Part shown: piece by piece, positions 2,279-51,157 of the stretch
Position numbering within the stretch: the stretch's first letter is position 1
Layout of the letters: each line of letters starts with the position of its first letter
Assembly (NCBI GenBank): GCA_963617265.1
Contig: CAVEOB010000004.1
Location: 1-56,579, forward strand
Length of the DNA: 56,579 bases
Direction: 5' to 3'
Source of the DNA: Mediterraneibacter gnavus
GTDB taxonomy: Bacteria > Pseudomonadota > Alphaproteobacteria > RF32 > CAG-239
The notes under the pieces: generated by a model
What the model was told of the DNA's origin: nothing
The model's database searches: none
The model's input: only the letters and a program-made list of their open reading frames with translations
Program-made: the position numbers and the translations under genes

Positions 2279-4501
2279 TTAGGCGGCGTTTTCCACCGGA
2301 CAAAGCTCTGCCAAAACTTCTTTTTTCAGCGTTACATTATCCGCCTTGCCGGTAGCAAATACCGGTAATTTTTCGTGATACAAAATCACACGCGGCAAAT
2401 AAAGCTCTGACATACCGTTGTTTTTTACATATTCATGCAGCATTGCCGAGGTAACTTTTTCATTATTGGTTACCAAAACAATCTGCTCGCCTTTACTTTC
2501 ATGCGGAATCGAAACCACGCCATAGCTGTATTCCGGTCCCATATCCTTAGTGGCGTCCATAACCATATCCTGCACGGCGTTCAGCGATACCATTTCGCCG
2601 CCGATTTTAGCAAAACGCTTGATACGGTCTTTAATGGTAAAGAAGCCGATTTCGTCCATTTCCACCACATCGCCGGTGTGATACCAGCCGTCTTCAGGCG
2701 GAACCAAGACACCAGGGTTGGACGGCATATAGTAACCCTGCATAACATTTGGACCTTTCACGCACAGCTCGCCGCCGTTGGCAATACCGTCAACTGGCAG
2801 AATCTTAAACTGCATGCCCGGCATAATTTTACCGATAGAGCCGAATTTATTGAAAATTCCATTGTTGGCGGTCATAACCGGAGAACATTCGGTTGCGCCG
2901 TAAGCTTCCATCATACGCACGCCGGAATGTTCCATCCACATACTGCGGGTGTCAGACTTGGCAGCCTCGCCGCCGGAATACATCAAGCGGATATTGTGGA
3001 AATCGTACGGGTGGGCAATTTTTGCATAACCACGCAAGAAAGTATCGGTACCAAGCATCAAAGTTGCGCCAAGCTCATAAACCAGCTCGGCAACCACACG
3101 ATAGTGCAGCGGAGACGGATACAAGAACAGCTTAGAACCTTCAAACAACGGGAACAGAGTGCCCACAGTCAAGCCAAAGCTATGGAACATCGGCAAGGCA
3201 TTAAACAGCAAATCCTTAAAGTTAATGGTTTGAATCGCCGTCATTTGCTTGATATTGGCAATGATGTTAGCATGGCTCAAAACCACGCCTTTCGGAGCGC
3301 CCTCTGAACCGGAAGTAAACAGAATAACCGCCTTTTTGTCGCCGCCTGTTTTGTGCGGAACATGCTTAATTTTATAGCTGATATAGGCACCGATTTTAGT
3401 CCACAGCGACATTTTTTTAGCAATATCTTCCAAATAAACAATATTGCAGCCGGCGTTTTTCATATCTTCTACCACGTTTTCCATTTTGGCTTTAATAATA
3501 AAAGTACGGGAAGTCAAAACGGTTTTAACCAGCGCAGTTTTGCACATGGAAATCATATTTTTAGAGCCGACAGAAAAGTTAATCATCACCGGAGTGCGGT
3601 TATAAGCCGAAAGTCCGAAAAATGTGCAAACTGTGGCAATAGCGTTCGGCAGCAAAATACCGACATTTTCATCAACCTTAGTAAACTTTTTAAAGCTGCG
3701 ACCCAAAGCAAAAGAAGCAACAATAATGTCTTTATAAGATTTTTGCTTGCGGTTGATATCTTCTATTATGCGCGGGCGTTTAGAAAAGAAACCAGTGCGG
3801 GAATATACCTTAGCGGTTTTCATCAGCTGGGCAAACAATGAAATATTTTTGTCATAGTTAATATCAAAGCACATCTCGCGCAAAATCATATATACTTCAT
3901 TGCTGATGTGGTCGCGTTGGCGGCGCAGTTCGTCTTTCAGCTTAAAGCTGCGCGGCTTGCCAACATAGATACGCATTTTCGGCAGCGGACGGTGCGGCAA
4001 TTTGCCTTTAGTCTTAGAAAAATAGCCGTATTGCGGACCGTCGATCCAAACCGGAATAATCGGAGATTTAGATTTATCGGCAACCAGCCCCGGAGCTTCA
4101 TAAATTTTCATTAAACCGCCGTTTTCAGTAATGCGTCCTTCGGCGAAAATCACCACCAAACGCCCCTCGTCCACTTTGGCAATCAGCTTTTTAATGTCTG
4201 AAGGCTCAATCGGATTAAACTTTATTACATCGGCACGCCCCATCAAAAAACTAATCCAATGACGGCGGTACAAATGACCGTTTAGGGCAAAAACCGGATT
4301 ACCAGGGAGAAATGCAAACAGCAAAATAGGGTCTAAATAAGAAACGTGGTTAACCACATAAACGCCTTTTTTAGGCAAGTTGTTCACATCAAATTCAAAA
4401 ATACATTTTGCTTTCATCAAACGCAAAACCGTTCGCAGGCAAAATCTGACAAACTCTTTCACAAGTCCAACCTTTCTGTTGTTAAATATTATCCTATCCA
4501 T
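2279..4501 (-). CDS. aas: Bifunctional acyltransferase / acyl-ACP (acyl-CoA) synthetase, Aas-like
   Basis: 740-aa fusion. N-terminal PlsC-type acyltransferase HxxxxD box (NHVSYLDP) plus a C-terminal AMP-binding domain (TSGSEGAPKGVVLSH, GWYHTGD). Confidence 0.75.
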   Translation of the reverse strand: MDRIIFNNRKVGLVKEFVRFCLRTVLRLMKAKCIFEFDVNNLPKKGVYVVNHVSYLDPILLFAFLPGNPVFALNGHLYRRHWISFLMGRADVIKFNPIEPSDIKKLIAKVDEGRLVVIFAEGRITENGGLMKIYEAPGLVADKSKSPIIPVWIDGPQYGYFSKTKGKLPHRPLPKMRIYVGKPRSFKLKDELRRQRDHISNEVYMILREMCFDINYDKNISLFAQLMKTAKVYSRTGFFSKRPRIIEDINRKQKSYKDIIVASFALGRSFKKFTKVDENVGILLPNAIATVCTFFGLSAYNRTPVMINFSVGSKNMISMCKTALVKTVLTSRTFIIKAKMENVVEDMKNAGCNIVYLEDIAKKMSLWTKIGAYISYKIKHVPHKTGGDKKAVILFTSGSEGAPKGVVLSHANIIANIKQMTAIQTINFKDLLFNALPMFHSFGLTVGTLFPLFEGSKLFLYPSPLHYRVVAELVYELGATLMLGTDTFLRGYAKIAHPYDFHNIRLMYSGGEAAKSDTRSMWMEHSGVRMMEAYGATECSPVMTANNGIFNKFGSIGKIMPGMQFKILPVDGIANGGELCVKGPNVMQGYYMPSNPGVLVPPEDGWYHTGDVVEMDEIGFFTIKDRIKRFAKIGGEMVSLNAVQDMVMDATKDMGPEYSYGVVSIPHESKGEQIVLVTNNEKVTSAMLHEYVKNNGMSELYLPRVILYHEKLPVFATGKADNVTLKKEVLAELCPVENAA

Positions 4502-4711
4502 ATAATATTATTAACGGTTTGTAAAGAGAAAATAGGCGAGTCATCAACAGGCAAATTTCCGTTTATAACATATTGTTTTTACTATGTTTTTCAAATTTTA
4601 TTCACAGTTTTGCGCCAAAAACTTGCCAAAATTGATATATTGCTGTATTGTGCGCCCTACGTAACGCAAACTTGTTTGGGTTAACATGTTCTAATAATAA
4701 AAAGGTTTAAA

Positions 4712-5989
4712 ATGAAAAAGGTTCTTACATTAACCGCCTTGAGCACCCTTCTGCTCTCTACCAGCGCTATGGCCGCCGGTTTCCATTTAAGAGAACAGTC
4801 CGCTGCAGCTCAAGGTAACGCTTATGCCGGCGCAACTGCCGGTGCAGAAAATGGTTCATACGCATATTACAACGCCGCCGGCATAACCCGTCAGAAAGGC
4901 TTGCAGGTAAACTTGGGTGCAACCTATATTGCACCGCGCGCCACAGCTAAAAATGTTAAAAGTCCAACCGGAGAACGCGGAGCCGATGTGGAAAACGTTG
5001 TGCATGCCGCTGTTTCGCCGAACGGCACAGTTTCTTATCAGCTTAACGACCGCGCTTTTGCCGCTATTGCCGCAAACTCACCGTTTGGCATGATTACAAA
5101 ATATGACAGAGAATGGATTGGTTCCGACCACGGTATTACTTCTGATTTGAAATCCGGCACTATTACTCCGATGTTTGCTTATAAAGCAACCGATAAATTA
5201 TCTTTGGGCGCTGGCGTGCAAATGCAATATATTTGGGCACACTTGACCAGCAGCCACAATAATTCTAGAACTGGCTTGGTTACCGAAAACGGCAATGACT
5301 TTGATATGGGCTACCAATTGGGCGCTATGTATGAATTTACCGATGCAACCCGCGTCGGCGTAGGCTACCGCAGCAAAATCAACCACAAAATAAAAGGCAA
5401 AATGAAATCCAGCGGCAGCGATCTCTCTGCTTCTGACAATCCACAGTATGCTGCAGCAGGTATGATGGCTGATGCTTTGATGAACCAAAAAATCAGCGCT
5501 AAGTTAACCACTCCGGCAATGCTTTCAATGGGTATTTATCACGACATTAACGAAAAATGGGCAGTTATGGCAGAATATCAGCGTGTATTTTGGAGTTCTT
5601 TCCAAAACCTGACTTTCAAGAGCCAAAACGGCGGCTATACTATTGCCAACGTAGAAGAAAACTGGCGCGACACCAACTTTTATTCTATCGGTACAAGCTA
5701 TATGTTGGATAATCAATGGAAGCTGCGTTTAGGCTTGGCTTATGACCAAAGCGCTGTCCGCTATGCTCACCGTACGCCGCGTATTCCAGATTCTGATCGT
5801 ATTTGGTACTCGTTCGGTTTAGGCTATCAATATAATGATAGACTGAGCTTTGACGCCGGTTACACATATATTAAAGCTCACAGCGCGAGAATGAACTCGG
5901 CTATTACAGGCAACGATGGCTCACACGTTTCCGCCGACTATTCAAACTCGGTAAAAGTGTTTGCTTTTTCGGTGAACTGCGCGTTCTAA
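4712..5989 (+). CDS. FadL/TodX-family outer-membrane long-chain fatty acid/hydrophobic compound channel
   Basis: Signal peptide ending AMA, followed by AGFHLREQSAAAQGNAYAG as is typical of FadL-family N-termini. Beta-barrel-like alternating pattern with a C-terminal aromatic residue (F). Divergent from the aas-like gene. Confidence 0.8.
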   Translation: MKKVLTLTALSTLLLSTSAMAAGFHLREQSAAAQGNAYAGATAGAENGSYAYYNAAGITRQKGLQVNLGATYIAPRATAKNVKSPTGERGADVENVVHAAVSPNGTVSYQLNDRAFAAIAANSPFGMITKYDREWIGSDHGITSDLKSGTITPMFAYKATDKLSLGAGVQMQYIWAHLTSSHNNSRTGLVTENGNDFDMGYQLGAMYEFTDATRVGVGYRSKINHKIKGKMKSSGSDLSASDNPQYAAAGMMADALMNQKISAKLTTPAMLSMGIYHDINEKWAVMAEYQRVFWSSFQNLTFKSQNGGYTIANVEENWRDTNFYSIGTSYMLDNQWKLRLGLAYDQSAVRYAHRTPRIPDSDRIWYSFGLGYQYNDRLSFDAGYTYIKAHSARMNSAITGNDGSHVSADYSNSVKVFAFSVNCAF

Positions 5990-14123: not shown

Positions 14124-16283
14124 ATGAAAAATACCGGATTGATTGCATTGGTTGCCTTAGGCGTTATGCTGCTGGTTGCCGTAAAATTTAATTTGATGCC
14201 TAGCTTAAAAACATCATTATATGATGAAGACGGCTATGTTGATTCTTTAGAGACAAAACATGAAAATGGCGTGCAGAAAGATTATTATCAAAACGGCAAT
14301 ATTAAAACCGAAACTCCTTATAAAAACAACAAAATCGACGGCGTGCTGACCTCTTATTACGCCAATGGAAATGTTAAGTCGGAATCTAATTACGTTGCCG
14401 GAAATCAAGAAGGCGAAACTAAAACCTATTATAAAGACGGCGGATTAGAAAAAATTTACACTTACCGCAACGGACAGCTGAACGGACCGGTTAAAGCCTA
14501 TGATAAAAACGGCAAATTGGAATCTACCGCCGAATTTAAAAATAACGAGCAATTCGGCACCGAAACAGGCTATTACCCAAGCGGCAAAGTTAAATATGTG
14601 CTGAATATGAATGAAAACGGCAAAATCGACGGCAAACTCATTCAATATTTTGAAAACGGCAAAATTTCATCGGAAACTCCGTATACCAATGGTTCTGTAG
14701 AAGGAACCGAACAGGTTTATTATGAAAACGGCGAACTAAAAGAACTGAACAACTTTGTCAACAATCTGTATGACGGAGTGCAGAAAACCTATTTTGACAA
14801 CGGCGTTCTTTATGCCGAAGCAAACTATACTGCCGGCGTGCTGCAGGGCGTAACCAAAACTTATTATCCCAACAAGCAGCTGGAAGAATATTTGATCTTT
14901 GCCGACAATATGCGCAACGGCATTTATAAAAAATATTTTGATAACGGCAAATTGCAAAATGAAATCAACTTTAGCAATGACCAGCCAAATGGTTTGATGA
15001 AAACTTATTTCAGAAACGGCAATCTTTATTCGGAACTGCCGTATGTTGACGGTGTTATAGAAGGTCAGGCAAAAATGTATTATGAAAACGGCAAAAAGAA
15101 ATCCGTTGCCGATTTTGCCGATAACAAGCTGAACGGGCACGATGTCGGATTTTATCAGAATGGTAAAATGATGTATGACATCATGTATAAAGACGGCGTG
15201 ATGAACGGCAAGTCTGTTGAATATTTTGACAACGGAAATATAGCGCGCACCGCCAATTATTTAAACGGAGAATTGAACGGCGAAGTTATATCATATAACA
15301 AAAACGGCACAAAAGCCGCACAAACTTATATGACTAACGGCAAAATTTCGGGCAAAGTTATAACCTATAAAGCCGATGGCAAAACCGTTAATGAAGAGCT
15401 GAACTTTACCGACAACACCCTTAACGGAATTGTTAAAAAGAAAGATGCCTTCGGTAACACCGCGGTTGAAGCGTTGTTTAAAAATGGTCAGTTTGCCGGA
15501 ACAGAAACCGGCTATTATGAAAACGGCACGGTTAAATATGTGCTGAAAACAGAAAACGGCGAACTTTCGGGCAGCCAGCTGCAATATGATGCTAACGGCA
15601 AACCGAAAACCGACAATATGAACGGCACGCTTGAACTATTTTATGAAAGCGGCGCTAAAATGGCGGATATTCCTTATAAAAATGGTGTGCAAGACGGCGT
15701 GATTAAAACATATTTTGAAGATAACAAAGCTGTTAATGAAGTAACCGAAGTTAAAAACGGCAAACGCGACGGCAGCTATATTGAATATGACGCAAACGGC
15801 AAAAAAATTACCGATGCCACCTACAAAAACGGCGAACTTAACGGATATTTGCGGCTTTATTACGACAACGAACAGCTCATGGCTCAAGTTCCATATAAAA
15901 ACGGCGTTATAAGCGGCGAAGCTGCGGCGTTTGACCAACAAGGAAACAAAGTTTACAGCATGCGCTTTGCCGGCAACAAATTGGAAGGCGCCCGCACTGC
16001 CTACTATTCTGACGGCAAAGTAAAATATGTTAAAAACTACAAAGCCGGAATTTGGGACGGAAAATCATATAAAGAATATGATGAAAATGGTCAATTAACT
16101 TATGATGTAAGCGACGATGGTTTAAGCACTACTTATCGTAAAAACAATGGCTCCGGAACTATGGTTAAAATGTCGGACGCTGAGAAATCAGAATTACTGA
16201 AACGCATTGATAACCGCGAGGAAGAAAAACAAGATTTGAAAATGCTTTCTGACTTAAAACCTCAGGTGGAACCTCTGTTTTAG
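14124..16283 (+). CDS. MORN-repeat (YwqK-like) protein, membrane anchored
   Basis: 719 aa. N-terminal TM helix followed by more than 25 tandem ~23-aa units of the form YYxNGxxKxExxYxxGxxxG. Confidence 0.75.
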   Translation: MKNTGLIALVALGVMLLVAVKFNLMPSLKTSLYDEDGYVDSLETKHENGVQKDYYQNGNIKTETPYKNNKIDGVLTSYYANGNVKSESNYVAGNQEGETKTYYKDGGLEKIYTYRNGQLNGPVKAYDKNGKLESTAEFKNNEQFGTETGYYPSGKVKYVLNMNENGKIDGKLIQYFENGKISSETPYTNGSVEGTEQVYYENGELKELNNFVNNLYDGVQKTYFDNGVLYAEANYTAGVLQGVTKTYYPNKQLEEYLIFADNMRNGIYKKYFDNGKLQNEINFSNDQPNGLMKTYFRNGNLYSELPYVDGVIEGQAKMYYENGKKKSVADFADNKLNGHDVGFYQNGKMMYDIMYKDGVMNGKSVEYFDNGNIARTANYLNGELNGEVISYNKNGTKAAQTYMTNGKISGKVITYKADGKTVNEELNFTDNTLNGIVKKKDAFGNTAVEALFKNGQFAGTETGYYENGTVKYVLKTENGELSGSQLQYDANGKPKTDNMNGTLELFYESGAKMADIPYKNGVQDGVIKTYFEDNKAVNEVTEVKNGKRDGSYIEYDANGKKITDATYKNGELNGYLRLYYDNEQLMAQVPYKNGVISGEAAAFDQQGNKVYSMRFAGNKLEGARTAYYSDGKVKYVKNYKAGIWDGKSYKEYDENGQLTYDVSDDGLSTTYRKNNGSGTMVKMSDAEKSELLKRIDNREEEKQDLKMLSDLKPQVEPLF

Positions 16284-36561: not shown

Positions 36562-37494
36562 TTATTCAGCACCGGAATTGCGGTTCTTAAAAATTCCCTG
36601 CTCATACCCTTGTATTTCTTTGTTTTTTGCAGCCATTTCCAAGCGTTTAAGCGCCAATGCCACATATTTGCGCTCGCGTTCTATGCCCAAATACCGGCGT
36701 TCTAATTTTTTAGCAACCACCGCCGTAGTTCCAGAACCCAAAAATGGATCAAACACCACATCGCCGGCATTGCTGGAGGCTAATATCAGCTTTGCAATCA
36801 ATTTTTCGGGTTTTTGAGTAGGATGCTCGGTATTTTCCGCCATTGACCAAAAAGGAATCGTGATATCGGTCCAAATATTGGACGGTGCCGTCAAACGGGT
36901 TTTTTCGCCATTTTTTTCCTGCCAGTCTTTAGGTTTTCCCTTACCGTCGCGATATGGTGCCAGCACTTTTTTTTGCATTTTCACCGCGTCCAAATTAAAA
37001 GTATATTCGTCAGACATGGTAAAAAACCATATATCTTCCAAACAATTTTTCCAATTATTAGCGGCGGCACGCCCCTTGTCGCGCTCCCAAGAAATTCGGT
37101 TGCGCAATTTGAAATATTTGCCGGCAACCAGCGGAACTACTATAGAACTCTGCCAATCCGAACAAATATACAAGCTGGCGTTAGGTTTGAGAATCCGCAC
37201 GGTTTTAGACAGCCACTTGTCCAGCCATTTTTTATATTCCGTCAAATCCATTTGATAAAACGTGTTTTTACCAAAATTCTTGGTCAAATTATACGGCGGG
37301 TCGACAATCATCAAATCGGCAAAATTATCCGGCACATGGCGCAGCGCATTAAAAGTATCCTGCCACACAATTTTATCAAGCAAAGCCGACGGCTCTGCCG
37401 CAGCAGAAAGCTTTATAGCTTTTTTAGCGTAGCTGCATTCTTCACGCGGCGACAAAACAATGGTTTTATTACGCGGTGCCGGACTGCCAATCAC
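36562..37494 (-). CDS. Beta-class N6-adenine DNA methyltransferase (CcrM-like, orphan)
   Basis: DPPY (MIVDPPYNL) precedes the AdoMet motif FDPFLGSGTT, which is the beta-class order. No restriction endonuclease gene is adjacent. Its ATG overlaps the HPr stop. Confidence 0.85.
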   Translation of the reverse strand: MIGSPAPRNKTIVLSPREECSYAKKAIKLSAAAEPSALLDKIVWQDTFNALRHVPDNFADLMIVDPPYNLTKNFGKNTFYQMDLTEYKKWLDKWLSKTVRILKPNASLYICSDWQSSIVVPLVAGKYFKLRNRISWERDKGRAAANNWKNCLEDIWFFTMSDEYTFNLDAVKMQKKVLAPYRDGKGKPKDWQEKNGEKTRLTAPSNIWTDITIPFWSMAENTEHPTQKPEKLIAKLILASSNAGDVVFDPFLGSGTTAVVAKKLERRYLGIERERKYVALALKRLEMAAKNKEIQGYEQGIFKNRNSGAE

Positions 37495-43772: not shown

Positions 43773-43816
43773 TTAAAGTGTTTTAAGTATAATTTTGTTT
43801 AATTTATTATTTGGCT

Positions 43817-44674
43817 ATGAATTTTAAACTATTTGCGGACTCTCAGTTAGTTCTTGTTGAAAACAACGGTAAGTACAATCTCTGCCACATGGATTGCGAT
43901 GACGAAAGCCACATTGAAATCACGCCGCTGGAATTTGCTTCGACAGATTCAGCTCCGCGGGTGGAAGTTGAGTTGGGGTTGATTTTCAGCTCTAACGGCG
44001 TGTACGATTTTGAGGGAAAAAAAGTCTCCGACTTTTCGCACACCAAATTTGCAGTGCACAAAATGCACGGTGAAGACAACTTCTTGATTGTCGACGCGGC
44101 TTGCAGCGAAATTCTTTTGCTGAACGGCAGCAAAATTGTGCTGAATGCCGCCGCCAAAGCAGTCAAGCGCTCTAAGCGCTACATTGCCTTTATTGGCAAT
44201 GGTAAATGGCAACTTTATCGCTACAACGGTTTCAAGCTGTCGTTTGCCGTGCCAATACCGGAAGACAACAAATTGTTTTTAGGCGACAGCTTAGTTGTTT
44301 GCGGCACGCCGGGGAACTATCGCCTGTATTCTCTTTATGACAAAGAGGTGCTGTGCGAAAAGCAAAACCACATTCACTGCAGTCCGACCCAGCATTTTGC
44401 CATTTGCTCGGAGCTCACCGGTAAAAAAGCCAACATTTTCTACAACGGCTATTGGAAGTCGTTTGACAATGTTGAAGAATTCACCATCGTAAACGACACG
44501 CACCGGTTGTTTGCTTTGCGCTGTAACGGCAAGTATTTCGTCTACAACTATGACGGAACACCCGACTACGACCTGGCTAAATTGTATCCCAACGGGATGG
44601 ATTTTGTCTGTTTCAACGATGGCTTGCTGATGGTTATGGACAATGGCAGCACAAACTTCTATTCTCGCGGCTAA
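43817..44674 (+). CDS. Hypothetical protein with WG/KWG-like beta repeats
   Basis: Repeated GK(W/Y)xLYxYxG-like units (GKWQLYRYNG, GNYRLYSLYD, GKYFVYNYDG). A TTGACA-N17-TATATA promoter lies at 43744-43772. Confidence 0.5.
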   Translation: MNFKLFADSQLVLVENNGKYNLCHMDCDDESHIEITPLEFASTDSAPRVEVELGLIFSSNGVYDFEGKKVSDFSHTKFAVHKMHGEDNFLIVDAACSEILLLNGSKIVLNAAAKAVKRSKRYIAFIGNGKWQLYRYNGFKLSFAVPIPEDNKLFLGDSLVVCGTPGNYRLYSLYDKEVLCEKQNHIHCSPTQHFAICSELTGKKANIFYNGYWKSFDNVEEFTIVNDTHRLFALRCNGKYFVYNYDGTPDYDLAKLYPNGMDFVCFNDGLLMVMDNGSTNFYSRG

Positions 44675-44897: not shown

Positions 44898-46532
44898 TTA
44901 GTCATACCAATCGTAATAATAAGTATTTCCATCATCGTTAGGCTTTGCTTGACCGTTCCAACTTGGTTTTTGGATACTAAAATTATACATAGTACAATTA
45001 CAAGCTCCTGGTCCACCACATGCACCTGAATATTCTTTCCAGCATGAACCTACACCACTGCTACTTCCACTAGAAATAGTCGCAGAACCTTGGAATTGAT
45101 AACTTCCATTATCTTCATAACCCTCACCCAAGTGGTCATCAATCCTCCAACAATCTACATCTCCTTCGTAAAAAACAGTGATATCCTCTTTTACTGGTTG
45201 ATCAGATATTAACTTCAGACAATGACCAGTTGTGCCATCAACAATTCCATCGACATACTCCCAATCAATCGATATATGGACTTCTTTATTAGTTGAAGAC
45301 GGAGATTCACTGCCGCATTGCTCGCCGCCTTTTAACGGAATTTGCAAAGTAGCTTCACTGTTGACAACGGTATAGCCGGCTGCCTTAGCTTTTTCAATCA
45401 TGCAGCTTTTACGCTCAGCGTCGTCCGCCGCATCTTTTGCACATTCGGTATCAGCGACAAAATATTCCGCATTCGGCATAAAGAAGTCTTCACCTGTGCT
45501 TTCATCTTTCAGCAGGTGGATAGCAACATCTGCATCGCTTACAAAAACACTATCCTCCTTGTCAAAATCGAAATCATGATATTTTAATTCATAGGTTTCA
45601 ACCCCTGCTACATTGCAAGCGTCATTGTCATATTTTCCGGTGTCGGCATTCTTGCGTCCGCAGTCATCACCGGCTTTTGTGCAGGTATACGGATTAGTGC
45701 TATCAACTAAGTTTTCGGACAGACCCCACAAAAGTTCTTTTCCAATACTTTCAAAATTATTCCACAATGTTTTAGGAATAACTGTTCCACTGATATTGTT
45801 GTTAACGTTGCTGCCAGTACCGTTACCATAGAACATATATTTTATCTTACCTGTAACATCGCTTGGACAAGTCCCGCCGTTGCAGGTATATTTAAATTTA
45901 AAGGTTATAGTGGTAGGTTCGCTATTCGTTTCACAGATTCCGCACTTGTTGCTGTATCCGTCAACTTTATCGCCAAGCACAAACGTTTCACCGGTTTTAC
46001 AGTTTGCAGCTGTTTGCAAACCGCCCATTTGCGAGCAGGCTAATTTTTCACAAGTACCGCATACGCCATCACTACCGGTTTCGCCATTGTCTTTGAATCC
46101 TAAATATTCTTTGCCGCAGCCAGTTGTTTTTGATATATATCCCTTATCTTTGCAGGTTGGATCAGCCACCAACTTATAGCAATTGCCGCAAACCAAACAT
46201 TTAGAATTAACTTGAGCGTTTTTGGCTGCAGTTTTGCATTCACTTATACTGCCATAGATGCCGTTGCTATGGTTTAGATCTGTGTCGCATTTAATATACC
46301 AGCATAATTTGTTGTCGTTTTGATAGGCTTTTTCACAAGTTTTATCTTTTATTTTAGCTTCTGCTGCTTCTTGGGAGTTATATTGGCAACAGGTTGTGCA
46401 AACAGGAGGCTCAGAAGGTTTGCCCATTCCGCAATCTTTTGAGTCCGGTAAAAAACACACCCTTGCAAAAACCGGAGTCGCAGCCATGCATAAAACCCCG
46501 ATAAAACACAATTTATTCAATAATTTAAACAT
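44898..46532 (-). CDS. Large Cys-rich secreted protein of unknown function
   Basis: 544 aa with signal peptide MFKLLNKLCFIGVLCMAATPVFA. Many Cys residues occur in short spacings (CTTCCQ, CLVCGNC, CGTCEKLAC, CGICE, CGGPGACNC). Strong SD GGGAGGA. Confidence 0.7.
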   Translation of the reverse strand: MFKLLNKLCFIGVLCMAATPVFARVCFLPDSKDCGMGKPSEPPVCTTCCQYNSQEAAEAKIKDKTCEKAYQNDNKLCWYIKCDTDLNHSNGIYGSISECKTAAKNAQVNSKCLVCGNCYKLVADPTCKDKGYISKTTGCGKEYLGFKDNGETGSDGVCGTCEKLACSQMGGLQTAANCKTGETFVLGDKVDGYSNKCGICETNSEPTTITFKFKYTCNGGTCPSDVTGKIKYMFYGNGTGSNVNNNISGTVIPKTLWNNFESIGKELLWGLSENLVDSTNPYTCTKAGDDCGRKNADTGKYDNDACNVAGVETYELKYHDFDFDKEDSVFVSDADVAIHLLKDESTGEDFFMPNAEYFVADTECAKDAADDAERKSCMIEKAKAAGYTVVNSEATLQIPLKGGEQCGSESPSSTNKEVHISIDWEYVDGIVDGTTGHCLKLISDQPVKEDITVFYEGDVDCWRIDDHLGEGYEDNGSYQFQGSATISSGSSSGVGSCWKEYSGACGGPGACNCTMYNFSIQKPSWNGQAKPNDDGNTYYYDWYD

Positions 46533-46550
46533 AATACGATCCTCCCTGCT

Positions 46551-46735
46551 GTGTAAAAAAAACGACCGTTATTTTTACACACTAAAAAGGCTATTTTTGT
46601 AATATTACGAAATATTTCAGAATTATGAAGAAAATTGAGCAATCTTAAATAGTTATTGCAAAAAAATCGTAAAATATTGTATACTAAAAGTATTAGAGGT
46701 AAAGTGTGTAAAAATAACGGTCGTTTTTTTTACAC
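46551..46735. promoter_or_regulatory. Candidate invertible promoter element (inverton): 32-bp perfect inverted repeats flanking 121 bp
   Basis: IR-L at 46551-46582 (gtgtaaaaaaaacgaccgttatttttacacac) is the exact reverse complement of IR-R at 46704-46735. Confidence 0.5.
46656..46685 (+). promoter_or_regulatory. Sigma-70-like promoter inside the IR-flanked segment, pointing away from the Cys-rich gene
   Basis: TTGCAA (46656-46661), 18-nt spacer, TATACT (46680-46685). It currently faces the 3' end of a convergent gene. Confidence 0.45.
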
Positions 46736-46759
46736 ACTTTTTTCACAAAAATGAAGCTA

Positions 46760-48325
46760 TTATTTAGATAGCGAATACACCGCTTTTAAGCCGTCTGCCG
46801 CAGCCGAGGTTATACCGCCGGCATAGCCGGCGCCCTCGCCGCAAGGATACAGCCCTTTGACATTGCTTTGCATGGTTTCATCACGCACTATCCTCACTGG
46901 CGAAGAACTGCGGGTTTCAACTCCGGTCAAAACCGCGTCATAGCAATCAAATCCGTGCAATTTTTTAGCCATTTCCACAATACCCAGCCGCAAAGAATCC
47001 GCTATTTCTTCCGGCAGAACCTGTTTAAATCCGCCTAAAGCCACCCCCGGAAGATAGGACGGACGCACCTCGCCTAACTTTTGTGAAACTTTGCGCCGCA
47101 AGAAATCTCCGACCAAAACCGCCGGCGCGCGATATGATTTGTCACCGGCAATAAAAGCGTTTTCCTCTAATTTACGCTGAAAATACATACCAGCCAGCGG
47201 ATTGCTGCTACCAAAATCTTTTTCGGAAACACCAACCAGCAAAGCCGAATTAGCATTCTCAGCCGCGCGGGCAAACTCGCTCATACCGTTTGTCACGACA
47301 CGTCCTTTTTCGGAAGCAGCCGCCACAACCACACCGCCCGGACACATGCAAAACGTATATACCGAGCGTCCGTTGGGCAAATGCACCGCCATTTTATAGT
47401 CAGCCGCGCCCAAATACGGGCTTTCCGCCGCTTTGCCGTACTGCGCTTTATTTATCAGGGTTTGTTTGTGTTCAATTCTAGCGCCGACTGAAAACGATTT
47501 TTGCTCCATGTGCACGCCTGAATTATACAGCATCTCAAAAGTATCGCGCGCGCTGTGACCGATAGCCAAAAACAGCTTGTTTGCTGGCAATTCATAAGTT
47601 TCTTTTTCGTTCGTAATTTTAATTGCAGCAAGTTTATCGTTTTTGATAACAAGTCCGGTTAACTGACTGTTAAAACGATATTCTCCGCCCAAAGACAGTA
47701 TTTTTTGCCGAATATTTTTAACAACCAAACGCAGTTTATCCGTACCAATATGCGGCTTTGCCAAATAAAGAATTTCTTGAGGAGCTCCGGCGGCGGCAAA
47801 TTCTTGCAAAACTTTAGCGGTGAACTTGTCTTTTTTGATGCCTGTCATCAGCTTGCCGTCCGAAAAAGTACCAGCACCGCCCTCTCCGAACTGCACGTTG
47901 GAATTGGCTTTAAGCTCGCCGCCCTGCCAAAACGCCGCCACATCTTTTTGACGCTGCTCCACTGGCGCGCCGCGCTCCAAAATAATCGGGTTCAAACCGG
48001 CTTCAGCCAAAGCAAGACCAGCAAACATACCGGCTGGACCGCTGCCAACCACAATTGGACGCACGCCGTCAGCCTTGAGGTTAAACGTTAGTTTTTCCAC
48101 TTCCGGCAGCTGCTCAATATCTTTGTCACGCACTGTTGAAACCGCATTGCAATCCACGCTGTATACAAAATGCACATTGTTTTTGCTGCGCGCGTCAACC
48201 GATTTTTTGGATACGGCGAAATTTTGGAGTTCTGTTTCTTTAACCCCCAATTTTTGCGCGGCTTTTTGTTTGAGCTGCTGTTCGCTTGCGTTCAGCGGCA
48301 TAGAAATATTGTTAATGCGTAACAT
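46760..48325 (-). CDS. FAD-dependent oxidoreductase (COG2509-type NAD(FAD)-utilising dehydrogenase)
   Basis: 521 aa with dinucleotide-binding fingerprint VVGSGPAGMFAGLALAEAG and conserved C-terminal GEGAGYAGGI. Confidence 0.8.
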   Translation of the reverse strand: MLRINNISMPLNASEQQLKQKAAQKLGVKETELQNFAVSKKSVDARSKNNVHFVYSVDCNAVSTVRDKDIEQLPEVEKLTFNLKADGVRPIVVGSGPAGMFAGLALAEAGLNPIILERGAPVEQRQKDVAAFWQGGELKANSNVQFGEGGAGTFSDGKLMTGIKKDKFTAKVLQEFAAAGAPQEILYLAKPHIGTDKLRLVVKNIRQKILSLGGEYRFNSQLTGLVIKNDKLAAIKITNEKETYELPANKLFLAIGHSARDTFEMLYNSGVHMEQKSFSVGARIEHKQTLINKAQYGKAAESPYLGAADYKMAVHLPNGRSVYTFCMCPGGVVVAAASEKGRVVTNGMSEFARAAENANSALLVGVSEKDFGSSNPLAGMYFQRKLEENAFIAGDKSYRAPAVLVGDFLRRKVSQKLGEVRPSYLPGVALGGFKQVLPEEIADSLRLGIVEMAKKLHGFDCYDAVLTGVETRSSSPVRIVRDETMQSNVKGLYPCGEGAGYAGGITSAAADGLKAVYSLSK

Positions 48326-50548: not shown

Positions 50549-51157
50549 CTAGCCGATAATCAATTCCATTTCGGTTTCGGAAGAGGTTAATTTCAAAGAA
50601 ACGTCCGCGCCTAATAGATTTTGCAAATAATAGAGCTGCGCATACTGCGAAGCGTTTTCATCAACCTTTTGACCGGCTAAAATCTTTTGGTATGCCGCAA
50701 TTTTTGAGGCTGAAAGCTTAAAGTCCGAAACCGCTTTGACAATCATATTGTCCGTACTGACGCTGATGGAAATTTCTCCGCCTTTAATATAAAGTTCGGC
50801 GGCAATCATCACACATACGCACACAATTTTAGAAAGCTCCTGTGAAACACGGTGCAATTTTAAGGTTATCGGGTTACCGCGGCTGCATACAGTTGCTAAA
50901 TAATCAGTACATAAACGCTCTAAGTCCGCAGGCTGCAGTTTTTGCGAATCCACACCAAACGCAACTCTGAAAAATTTTTGGCGGGCAATCAAAGTGTTTG
51001 AGCCGGTAGTCAGAATTTTTTTTGTACTGTCGTCCAACATTCCGTTGTCATCTTCTATCAATTCCAAGGCACTGGAAATTGCCCCGATATTGCCGATTAA
51101 ATCGTGGCTGATACGCGTGCAAATAAGTTCGGACAATTCCGTTTTGCTCAATTCCAT
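50549..51157 (-). CDS. chpT: ChpT-like histidine phosphotransferase
   Basis: 202 aa. LICTRISHDLIGNIGAISSALELIED matches the DHp-like His box of alphaproteobacterial ChpT, followed by a degenerate CA-like domain. Confidence 0.7.
   Translation of the reverse strand: MELSKTELSELICTRISHDLIGNIGAISSALELIEDDNGMLDDSTKKILTTGSNTLIARQKFFRVAFGVDSQKLQPADLERLCTDYLATVCSRGNPITLKLHRVSQELSKIVCVCVMIAAELYIKGGEISISVSTDNMIVKAVSDFKLSASKIAAYQKILAGQKVDENASQYAQLYYLQNLLGADVSLKLTSSETEMELIIG

Follow-up and report, generated by a model that had tools for sequence, protein, structure and literature searches.

Invertible promoters are a main route of surface variation in gut bacteria and have been studied mostly in Bacteroidales and in a few pathogens. 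The serine recombinases Hin of Salmonella and Gin of phage Mu act on imperfect palindromic sites, hix and gix, which are bound by dimers and whose 2-bp asymmetric centre enforces inversion. In the fimS switch of E. coli, a 314-bp segment between 9-bp repeats lies next to the genes of the tyrosine recombinases FimB and FimE at a single locus, and in Mycoplasma penetrans the mpl genes form a large paralogous lipoprotein family whose expression is combinatorial, each gene being preceded by a separate small invertible promoter. The system to which the locus described below appears closest is that of Mpi of Bacteroides fragilis, a single serine invertase that works in trans on 13 dispersed regions (PMC4747536, PMC5903667, PMC10403206), 7 of which are polysaccharide promoters (PMC4747536). 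General inverton surveys across bacteria exist (PMC11602134, PMC9881135), and no description of the present switch system was found in the searchable literature.

A repeat search over the window, by which we mean the whole 56.6-kb stretch of DNA analysed here, delimited two arms of 34 nt that are 100% complementary to each other, their site centres lying 155 nt apart (Table 1). The resulting unit is located between the stop codon of a gene encoding an FAD-dependent protein and the Shine-Dalgarno sequence (SD) and start codon of an ORF encoding a Cys-rich protein, with 3 nt between the proximal arm and the SD, and the same spacing is found at the equivalent site in most units of the family described below. 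The first-pass annotation of this DNA had described perfect 32-bp arms around a 121-bp interior, both of which are contained in the arms and interior delimited here, and had placed an SD and an ATG for the Cys-rich gene exactly where we find them. It had also called the copies inverted rather than direct, in agreement with an identity of 88% (30/34) when the arms are compared as direct repeats versus 100% when compared as inverted ones. Direct identity is still this high because each arm is itself a near-palindrome, with half-sites of 14-15 nt around an asymmetric GT/AC centre. The four positions that differ in the direct comparison are the central dinucleotide and, at a distance of five bases to its left and right, an A/T position, and the match is therefore perfect only in the inverted reading. 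A search allowing up to 3 mismatches returned no arm copies beyond these two in the whole window, and none turned up in 100 shuffled sequences; the number expected by chance is 0. The inverted repeat is free of mismatches and is not a random occurrence.

Table 1. Coordinates of the predicted switch unit and of the neighbouring features in the window.
Feature	Position	Strand	Description
Switch unit, whole	46550-46736		187 bp; two sites and the 119-nt segment
IR-L, proposed gene-proximal recombination site	46550-46583	.	Dyad TGTGTAAAAAAAACG-AC-CGTTATTTTTACACA; central dinucleotide 46565-46566
Predicted invertible segment	46584-46702	.	119 nt; carries the promoter; homologous to the interiors of other units
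IR-R, proposed gene-distal recombination site	46703-46736	.	AGTGTGTAAAAATAACG-GT-CGTTTTTTTTACACA; central dinucleotide 46720-46721
Sigma-70-like promoter	46656-46685	+	-35 TTGCAA 46656-46661, -10 TATACT 46680-46685, spacer 18 nt
Terminator-like structure	46701-46743	+	Distal site and AAAG/CTTT flanks form a hairpin, followed by T6 at 46738-46743
SD of the Cys-rich gene (GGGAGGA)	46540-46546	-	Site-then-SD order in most family units
Cys-rich gene, putatively controlled	44898-46532	-	544 aa, 36 Cys; signal-peptide-like N-terminus MFKLLNKLCFIGVLCMAATPVFA, then conserved RVCFLPD
FAD-dependent protein (PF21688), upstream neighbour	46760-48325	-	Context only, outside the switch; colinear flank in L093 corresponds to its 3' end

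The recombination-site sequence, written as a search string, is GTGTAAAAAWAACGRYCGTTWTTTTTACAC. We searched 185,579 species, each represented by one genome, with the degenerate site GTGTAAAAANNACGNNCGTNNTTTTTACAC and obtained 106 stretches from ten assemblies only, all of them gut MAGs, with 36 site-bearing blocks in CAKQRZ, 26 in CAKQDU and 14 in CAKQUG; a metagenome scan added a further 69 stretches with the site. The records label seven of the ten MAGs as Alphaproteobacteria and three as Bacteroidaceae or Eubacteriales, labels that may be wrong since CAVIDY, the one of these three that was compared directly with the window (at locus L093), is 91% identical to it. The nearest relatives of the window's genome are CAVIDY and CAKQPS, and the palindrome is confined to a single clade. 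One and the same 30-mer, in either direction, makes up 94 of the 121 pattern matches in the genome-scan loci and the window, and it almost always has a partner site at a distance of 141-163 nt. Our first impression was of a palindrome scattered in single copies, a finding that the first-pass annotation had listed as speaking against an invertible promoter. Dozens of copies do occur, but a fuzzy search overturned that impression by revealing, for the seemingly single sites, an inverted partner 143-145 nt upstream in which the outer half-site and core are kept (AAAGTGTGTAAAAAAAACG-AC-CGTT) and the inner half is different yet conserved (TAAAATGGAC). Given this hidden partner, the apparent single copies are units of the same kind, which supports the inverton reading. 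Paired units number 143 under a relaxed definition, and in a stricter set of 87 the two centres are 144 nt apart in 60 units, 143 nt in 19, 155 nt in 4, 145 nt in 2, 141 nt in one and 163 nt in one.

The orthologous locus L093 (CAVIDY010000007.1) has the same 3' end of the FAD-dependent gene, the same SD and the same MFKLLNKLY start as the window. Its flanks are colinear with those of the window (91.1% over 3683 nt), and the central 197 nt can be aligned, at 91.9%, solely on the opposite strand; the interior gave 113 identities and a score of 94.5 when flipped, versus a gapped score of 11.5 when unflipped. We then have, from an all-against-all comparison of the 79 units with both flanks, 188 matching pairs, namely 182 with colinear and 6 with flipped interiors. 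The six flipped pairs represent four independent loci: window/L093; L082/L101; L135 and L166/L171; L005 and L045/L164. In L135 and L171, which come from near-identical strains, identity is 99.6% and 96.7% in the flanks and, with the opposite strand, 98.9% over the central 176 nt; the dissimilar inner half-sites CGTTTAAAAGGGAC and CGTTATTTTTACAC are exactly swapped between the copies. Sequence is constant as far as ...AAAACG-AC at one end and again from GT-CGTTTT... at the other, and the swapped half-sites therefore confine the crossover to the 10-bp core AACG-NN-CGTT. We read this reciprocal exchange within a 10-bp core as the signature of conservative site-specific recombination.

These comparisons between assemblies, in which the window is ~9% diverged from L093, indicate that the unit at 46550-46736 is very probably a real invertible element. 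The invertible promoter segment proposed at first pass thereby gains the reverse-complemented interior of L093 and three further polymorphic loci of the family, and from such differences in orientation between assemblies we infer active switching in the strain of the window. The unit is also retained in a divergent syntenic orthologue, L178, which has accD and DivIC as neighbours and whose protein is 39% identical. For about 30 of the 69 metagenome stretches a contig end is no more than 300 nt away; contig ends at sites fit mixed orientation, but assembly breaks induced by repeats could also explain them. A one-sided junction analysis for both states within one sample pointed to L074/L081 of CAAGHP and L019/L041 of CAKQRZ, where paralogous flanks confound the result and make it suggestive only. 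A junction-specific pattern for the window locus had no match in metagenome contigs, the plasmid collection gave no match to the locus, and exact look-ups of the Cys-rich and FAD-dependent proteins matched no other contig.

As the first-pass annotation had stated, the window holds no recombinase gene: phmmer searches with Hin, XerD and FimB as queries, and with six recombinase ORFs of related loci, returned none among ORFs of at least 90 residues, even at E<=10, and Pfam scans of 30 window ORFs revealed housekeeping genes only, including MnmA, FadL, ClpX, Lon, PBP1a, an amidase, RNase E/G, FtsH, a release factor and AccD. Orthologous small serine recombinase ORFs are present in L015 (MAG CAKQRZ) and L091 (MAG CAVKTH), in 8-kb blocks around sites. 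They score 293.6 and 276.1 bits, respectively, against NCBIfam NF009949 (master DNA invertase Mpi family; cut-off 272). A 94%-identical protein is encoded on a contig of 305,597 nt, and several database homologues in Alphaproteobacteria MAGs bear the Mpi-family name. It seems reasonably likely that an Mpi-type serine invertase acts in trans on the unit, with the enzymes of the related MAGs CAKQRZ and CAVKTH as candidates.

The hix and gix sites of serine invertases are dimer-binding palindromes whose core asymmetry is the central dinucleotide, and a serine-type anatomy fits the present site because here, too, the central dinucleotide is the sole asymmetry of the core. Geometry alone nevertheless fails to separate a 2-bp from a 6-bp overlap, and the site can be read as 12-6-12 with the overlap CGGTCG, as would suit a tyrosine recombinase (FimB-, Tsr- or Xer-like) rather than an Mpi-type catalyst. 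Small tyrosine recombinases are indeed encoded in related loci: the ORF at 2979-3599 of L050, ~4 kb from a polymorphic unit, matches Phage_integrase (9e-21) and, weakly, models of tyrosine-type DNA invertases. No more than two tyrosine recombinase ORFs were seen in the sampled loci, however, and the other one, in L099, resembles an ordinary XerC/D, whereas the Mpi-family equivalog cut-off is passed in two MAGs and the 94% homologue is known; moreover, one trans-acting enzyme working on many identical sites is the behaviour that defines Mpi (PMC4747536). We therefore hold a tyrosine catalyst to be possible but unlikely. The geometry had been likened at first pass to fimS-type or Bacteroides-type invertible promoters. 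To judge from site anatomy and from the recombinases of related genomes, the second comparison stands in the form of the Bacteroides serine invertase Mpi and the first does not: a fimS-type switch was rejected because the window has no tyrosine recombinase ORF adjacent to the unit or elsewhere and because dyad-symmetric 34-bp sites and the trans arrangement do not fit it.

The promoter TTGCAA-N18-TATACT, which the first-pass annotation had read on the + strand, is confirmed there with 9/12 matches to the consensus and corresponds to a conserved family promoter, TTGCAA-N17/18-TAnnnT. When 74 distinct units were aligned, the best-conserved interior positions were GTTATTGCA, which contains the -35, the T, A and final T of TAnnnT, and the TG two bases ahead of the -10; the spacer is 17 nt in 71 of the 74, and the distance from the end of the -10 to the centre of the downstream site is fixed at 36-37 nt across the family. 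At present this promoter is directed away from the Cys-rich gene. On the same strand a hairpin is predicted for the distal site and its flanks (-19.9 kcal/mol, z -4.6), at which a consensus terminator scanner made no call; together with the T6 it forms a plausible terminator for outward transcripts, which would shield the convergent FAD-dependent gene from antisense transcription. Because the promoter is directed away from the gene, into the distal hairpin and T-run, the present orientation is probably OFF. That the flipped promoter would face the Cys-rich gene had been anticipated at first pass, and the orthologue L093 has precisely this arrangement. For the flipped state a leader of about 60 nt is predicted, with a proximal hairpin (about -11 kcal/mol) by which the SD would not be hidden.

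A simple motif test found the promoter facing away at ~125 proximal sites with a downstream SD and start codon and gene-facing at 7, some of these 7 being doubtful. A second count, made on paired units, gave 82 facing away, 9 facing towards the gene and 37 left unscored, the motif test being ambiguous. Gene-facing promoters held up on inspection in L093, L042, L003, L101, L073 and the L050 group; the common orientation is that of the window and also that of L178, L012 and L098, which carry orthologues or paralogues of its gene. Such a strong skew towards gene-averted promoters would be expected if most copies of a phase-variable family were OFF.

A second promoter-like match in the window, TTTACC-N16-TACAAT on the - strand (46703-46676), has an equal score and faces the gene in the present orientation; it was absent from the first-pass annotation. 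With such a match, the segment might be invertible yet no simple ON/OFF switch: it could carry two opposed promoters, or be expressing in its present orientation, inversion then altering promoter strength or leader. Across the family, opposite-strand sigma-70-like matches are as good or better in most units (9/12 in 46/74, 10/12 in 6/74) and lie at a conserved position with a conserved T, A and final T; in many pilin-type units (see below) the match takes the form TTGnnn-N18-TATATT, at a fixed position and with a score of 9/12, and some units between two divergent genes (L045/L005/L164) resemble toggles. The -35 of this opposite-strand candidate is weakly conserved, however, the gene-facing match of the window is not conserved in other units, and beyond the distal site of the window there is only the 3' end of a convergent gene. 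Were the common orientation ON, nearly all pilin-like paralogues of one MAG would be ON together, which is atypical for phase-variable families. We consider a switch with opposed promoters or an expressing present state rather unlikely, and retain OFF as the probable state of the window.

The Cys-rich protein has 31 homologues, none of them named. Its mature part begins, after the predicted cleavage site, with the RVCFLPD motif, and C26, F27, L28 and P29 are invariant in the family alignment together with many other Cys columns. An AF2 model, built on a 23-sequence alignment, was poor (mean pLDDT 46.8, pTM 0.31). Similar Cys-rich proteins are encoded downstream of other units and a GT87-like membrane protein downstream of one, and ~90 units precede proteins of roughly 230-290 aa with a long leader followed by GRSMIEMLGVLAIVGVLSVGGIAGY. 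These last proteins may be pilin-like, to judge from an N-terminus resembling that of prepilins with a Glu at +5, but no HMM supports this; Pfam, NCBIfam and PDB sequence searches returned nothing meaningful for either the Cys-rich or the pilin-like proteins, and a search of Rfam yielded nothing beyond miRNA-hairpin noise below threshold. Duplication of the unit has extended to its flanks and to the first ~14 codons within them. As far as these sequences indicate, over 100 such switches lie ahead of genes for surface or secreted proteins in an uncultured gut lineage, and their output is likely to be combinatorial variation of those proteins.

Each arm is stable when folded (-17 to -20 kcal/mol with flanks) and the distal arm lies 24 nt past a stop codon, as would also be the case if there were no programmed inversion here and the arms were independent hairpins or operators, one a terminator after the FAD-dependent gene and the other a leader or operator before the Cys-rich gene, with L093 representing an old fixed rearrangement. 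As the window and L093 are ~9% diverged, a single historical event would be enough to account for that pair. Independent hairpins would not be expected, however, to be 100% complementary over 34 nt, asymmetric positions included, and a fixed rearrangement is at odds with four independent polymorphic loci, including one at which near-identical strains differ by a reciprocal exchange of half-sites. An intrinsic terminator of the FAD-dependent gene was in any case rejected: the scanner found none, the hairpin is A+T-rich, and the T-run follows only on the strand opposite that gene. On this evidence independent hairpins with an old rearrangement are very improbable. Even less credible is spread by transposition of a MITE- or REP-like mobile repeat, as the units, though short, multi-copy and bounded by terminal inverted repeats with interiors homologous between copies, lack target-site duplications at their ends, lie for the most part at a fixed distance before an SD and start codon in a small number of paralogous gene families, with flanks that were duplicated along with them, and change orientation while their flanks stay unchanged, with no transposase noticed among the sampled loci, which were queried with Hin, XerD and FimB, and neither empty orthologous sites nor insertions with target duplications in unrelated contexts seen.

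Returning to a programmed inversion, we propose that a recombinase encoded elsewhere in the genome, most likely a master serine invertase of the Mpi family, binds both dyad-symmetric sites of 30-34 bp. Strand exchange would fall inside the central AACG-NN-CGTT, with the GT/AC centre as the main asymmetry fixing site polarity, and would invert the 119-bp segment together with its sigma-70-like promoter. In the orientation of the window the promoter would fire off from the Cys-rich gene into the distal hairpin and T-run, the probable OFF state; in the inverted state, arranged as in L093, transcription would pass through the proximal site to the SD and ATG with the leader of about 60 nt (ON). The unit would be one of a lineage-wide set of switches, dozens per related MAG, whose combined states could produce combinatorial phase variation of the cell surface. 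More tentatively, though we find the idea quite conceivable, the whole may form a large master-invertase regulon with up to 36 site-bearing 8-kb blocks per MAG, most with one switch per hypervariable pilin-like or Cys-rich gene, in which recombination between neighbouring switches (L150) and toggling of divergent paralogues (L045/L164) would combine phase variation with shufflon-like behaviour, and in which gut Bacteroidales would have the enzyme and the ACG-NN-CGT site in common with this clade, perhaps through exchange.

The logic of invertible promoters appears to be used densely by an uncultured gut lineage whose records are labelled Alphaproteobacteria, and on unannotated protein families, and the Cys-rich and pilin-like proteins concerned are marked as probable surface molecules exposed to host or phage. 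With a defined 30-bp site, a candidate trans-acting enzyme of the Mpi family and a 10-bp crossover interval, the system is directly testable. For annotation, contig breaks and apparent strain differences at such loci may be switch states.

Among the described systems, the M. penetrans mpl promoters offer a parallel in a combinatorially expressed paralogous family, but they have 12-bp repeats and tyrosine recombinases, belong to another phylum and show no sequence relationship to the units. The fimS element shares the logic of an ON/OFF promoter inversion directly upstream of its target, a fimbrial gene, in a similar size class. Like the Hin and Gin systems, the unit places an invertible promoter ahead of a gene for a probable surface protein; in Hin and Gin, however, the invertase gene is in or beside a segment of roughly 1-3 kb and a Fis-bound enhancer is needed, in contrast to the 119-bp segment, the lack of a local recombinase and the many target loci found here. 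The B. fragilis Mpi system differs in other respects. Our host MAG records are for the most part labelled Alphaproteobacteria rather than Bacteroidota, the promoter resembles the sigma-70 type (TTGCAA / TAnnnT) and not the -33/-7 type of Bacteroides, and the targets are single Cys-rich or pilin-like genes, not polysaccharide operons; copies are more numerous, reaching 36 site-bearing blocks in a single MAG, and the sites are long, near-perfect palindromes of 30-34 bp. There are also likenesses to Mpi. The B. fragilis Mpi repeats contain ARACGTWCGT, whose ACG-NN-CGT layout may be the one seen in AAACGGTCGT. Both systems comprise short promoter segments within inverted repeats, with one site common to many unlinked loci, both lack a recombinase gene beside the switch (action in trans being proposed here), both appear to be aimed at the surface of gut bacteria, and proteins of the related MAGs pass the NCBIfam equivalog cut-off for the Mpi family. 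By the tests that were possible, the unit would belong with the Mpi-controlled promoters of Bacteroides: one site recurs at many unlinked loci, and a candidate enzyme of the Mpi family is encoded in the clade.

Among the related site-bearing loci (L-numbers, from gut MAGs or metagenome contigs; coordinates are locus-internal), several switch units show additional features. At L003 (1485-1629; CAKQPS010000001.1) the inverted repeat extends beyond the palindrome and takes in the SD, each flank carrying CTTACGGAGGAACAAT; the promoter of this unit points towards its gene, whose product is a membrane protein of GT87-like type (PF09594). Pilin-like and Cys-rich proteins have their first ~14 codons (MLKSIEFLRGKSRG...) in common (L010, L014, L062 and many pilin-type loci), indicating that the duplicated cassette, comprising the distal flank, both sites, the promoter and the SD, reaches into the coding region. 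What is annotated as the start may be a shared leader.

A variant unit is located in L177 (2227-2439) at P0003, a 935-aa homologue of the Cys-rich gene adjoining clpX and clpP. Its inverted repeat is 39 nt long (90%); the half-sites are GTCCAAAAAAAACG and the centre is a symmetric AT. With such a centre, a serine recombinase would not be constrained to invert the segment instead of deleting it.

In three other units, those of L045 (1690-1845), L005 and L164, the site polarity is reversed (GT...AC) with a spacing of 155, and each unit is flanked by a pair of divergent paralogous genes. Both genes of L045, 350-1577 and 1828-3211, match L164 387-1761 at 93%, in opposite orientations, and the orientation of the segment differs between L045 and L164. 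Such a layout suggests a promoter that toggles between two genes rather than an ON/OFF switch.

Two further recombinase genes were found in related loci and are listed below with other genes of the window. The methylase of CcrM-like size and the weak ChpT-like match are consistent with an alphaproteobacterial host; the GC content of the window is 42.7%. The 287-aa ORF has its counterpart at 4201-5067 (-) in L178, so that its position is conserved in this divergent syntenic locus.

Further genes of the window and recombinase genes of related loci
Feature	Location	Strand	Remark
MORN-repeat protein, 719 aa	window 14124-16283	+	
N6/N4 DNA methylase	window 36562-37494	-	CcrM-like size
287-aa ORF	window 43811-44674	+	between accD and Cys-rich gene; without family match
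ChpT-like histidine phosphotransferase	window 50549-51157	-	weak match (E 0.0075)
Hin-like resolvase, 186 aa	L091 6720-7280		PF00239, 2.6e-37; well below Mpi cut-off (NF009949, 272)
Tyrosine recombinase, 196 aa	L050 2979-3599		~4 kb from polymorphic unit

The units are also places where assemblies break. As read off the match table, a contig end falls within 300 nt of a site in roughly 30 of the 69 metagenome contigs (L107-L175), and several contigs (L119, L121, L128, L138 and L155) end exactly at a site.

One coassembly contig, L150, carries a unit (1330-1474) with the distal flank of L004 on one side and that of L010 on the other. The L004 and L010 units are ~8.5 kb apart on CAKQRZ010000006.1, and an inversion between sites of these two neighbouring switches would yield such mixed flanks. 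The L150 rearrangement therefore looks shufflon-like.
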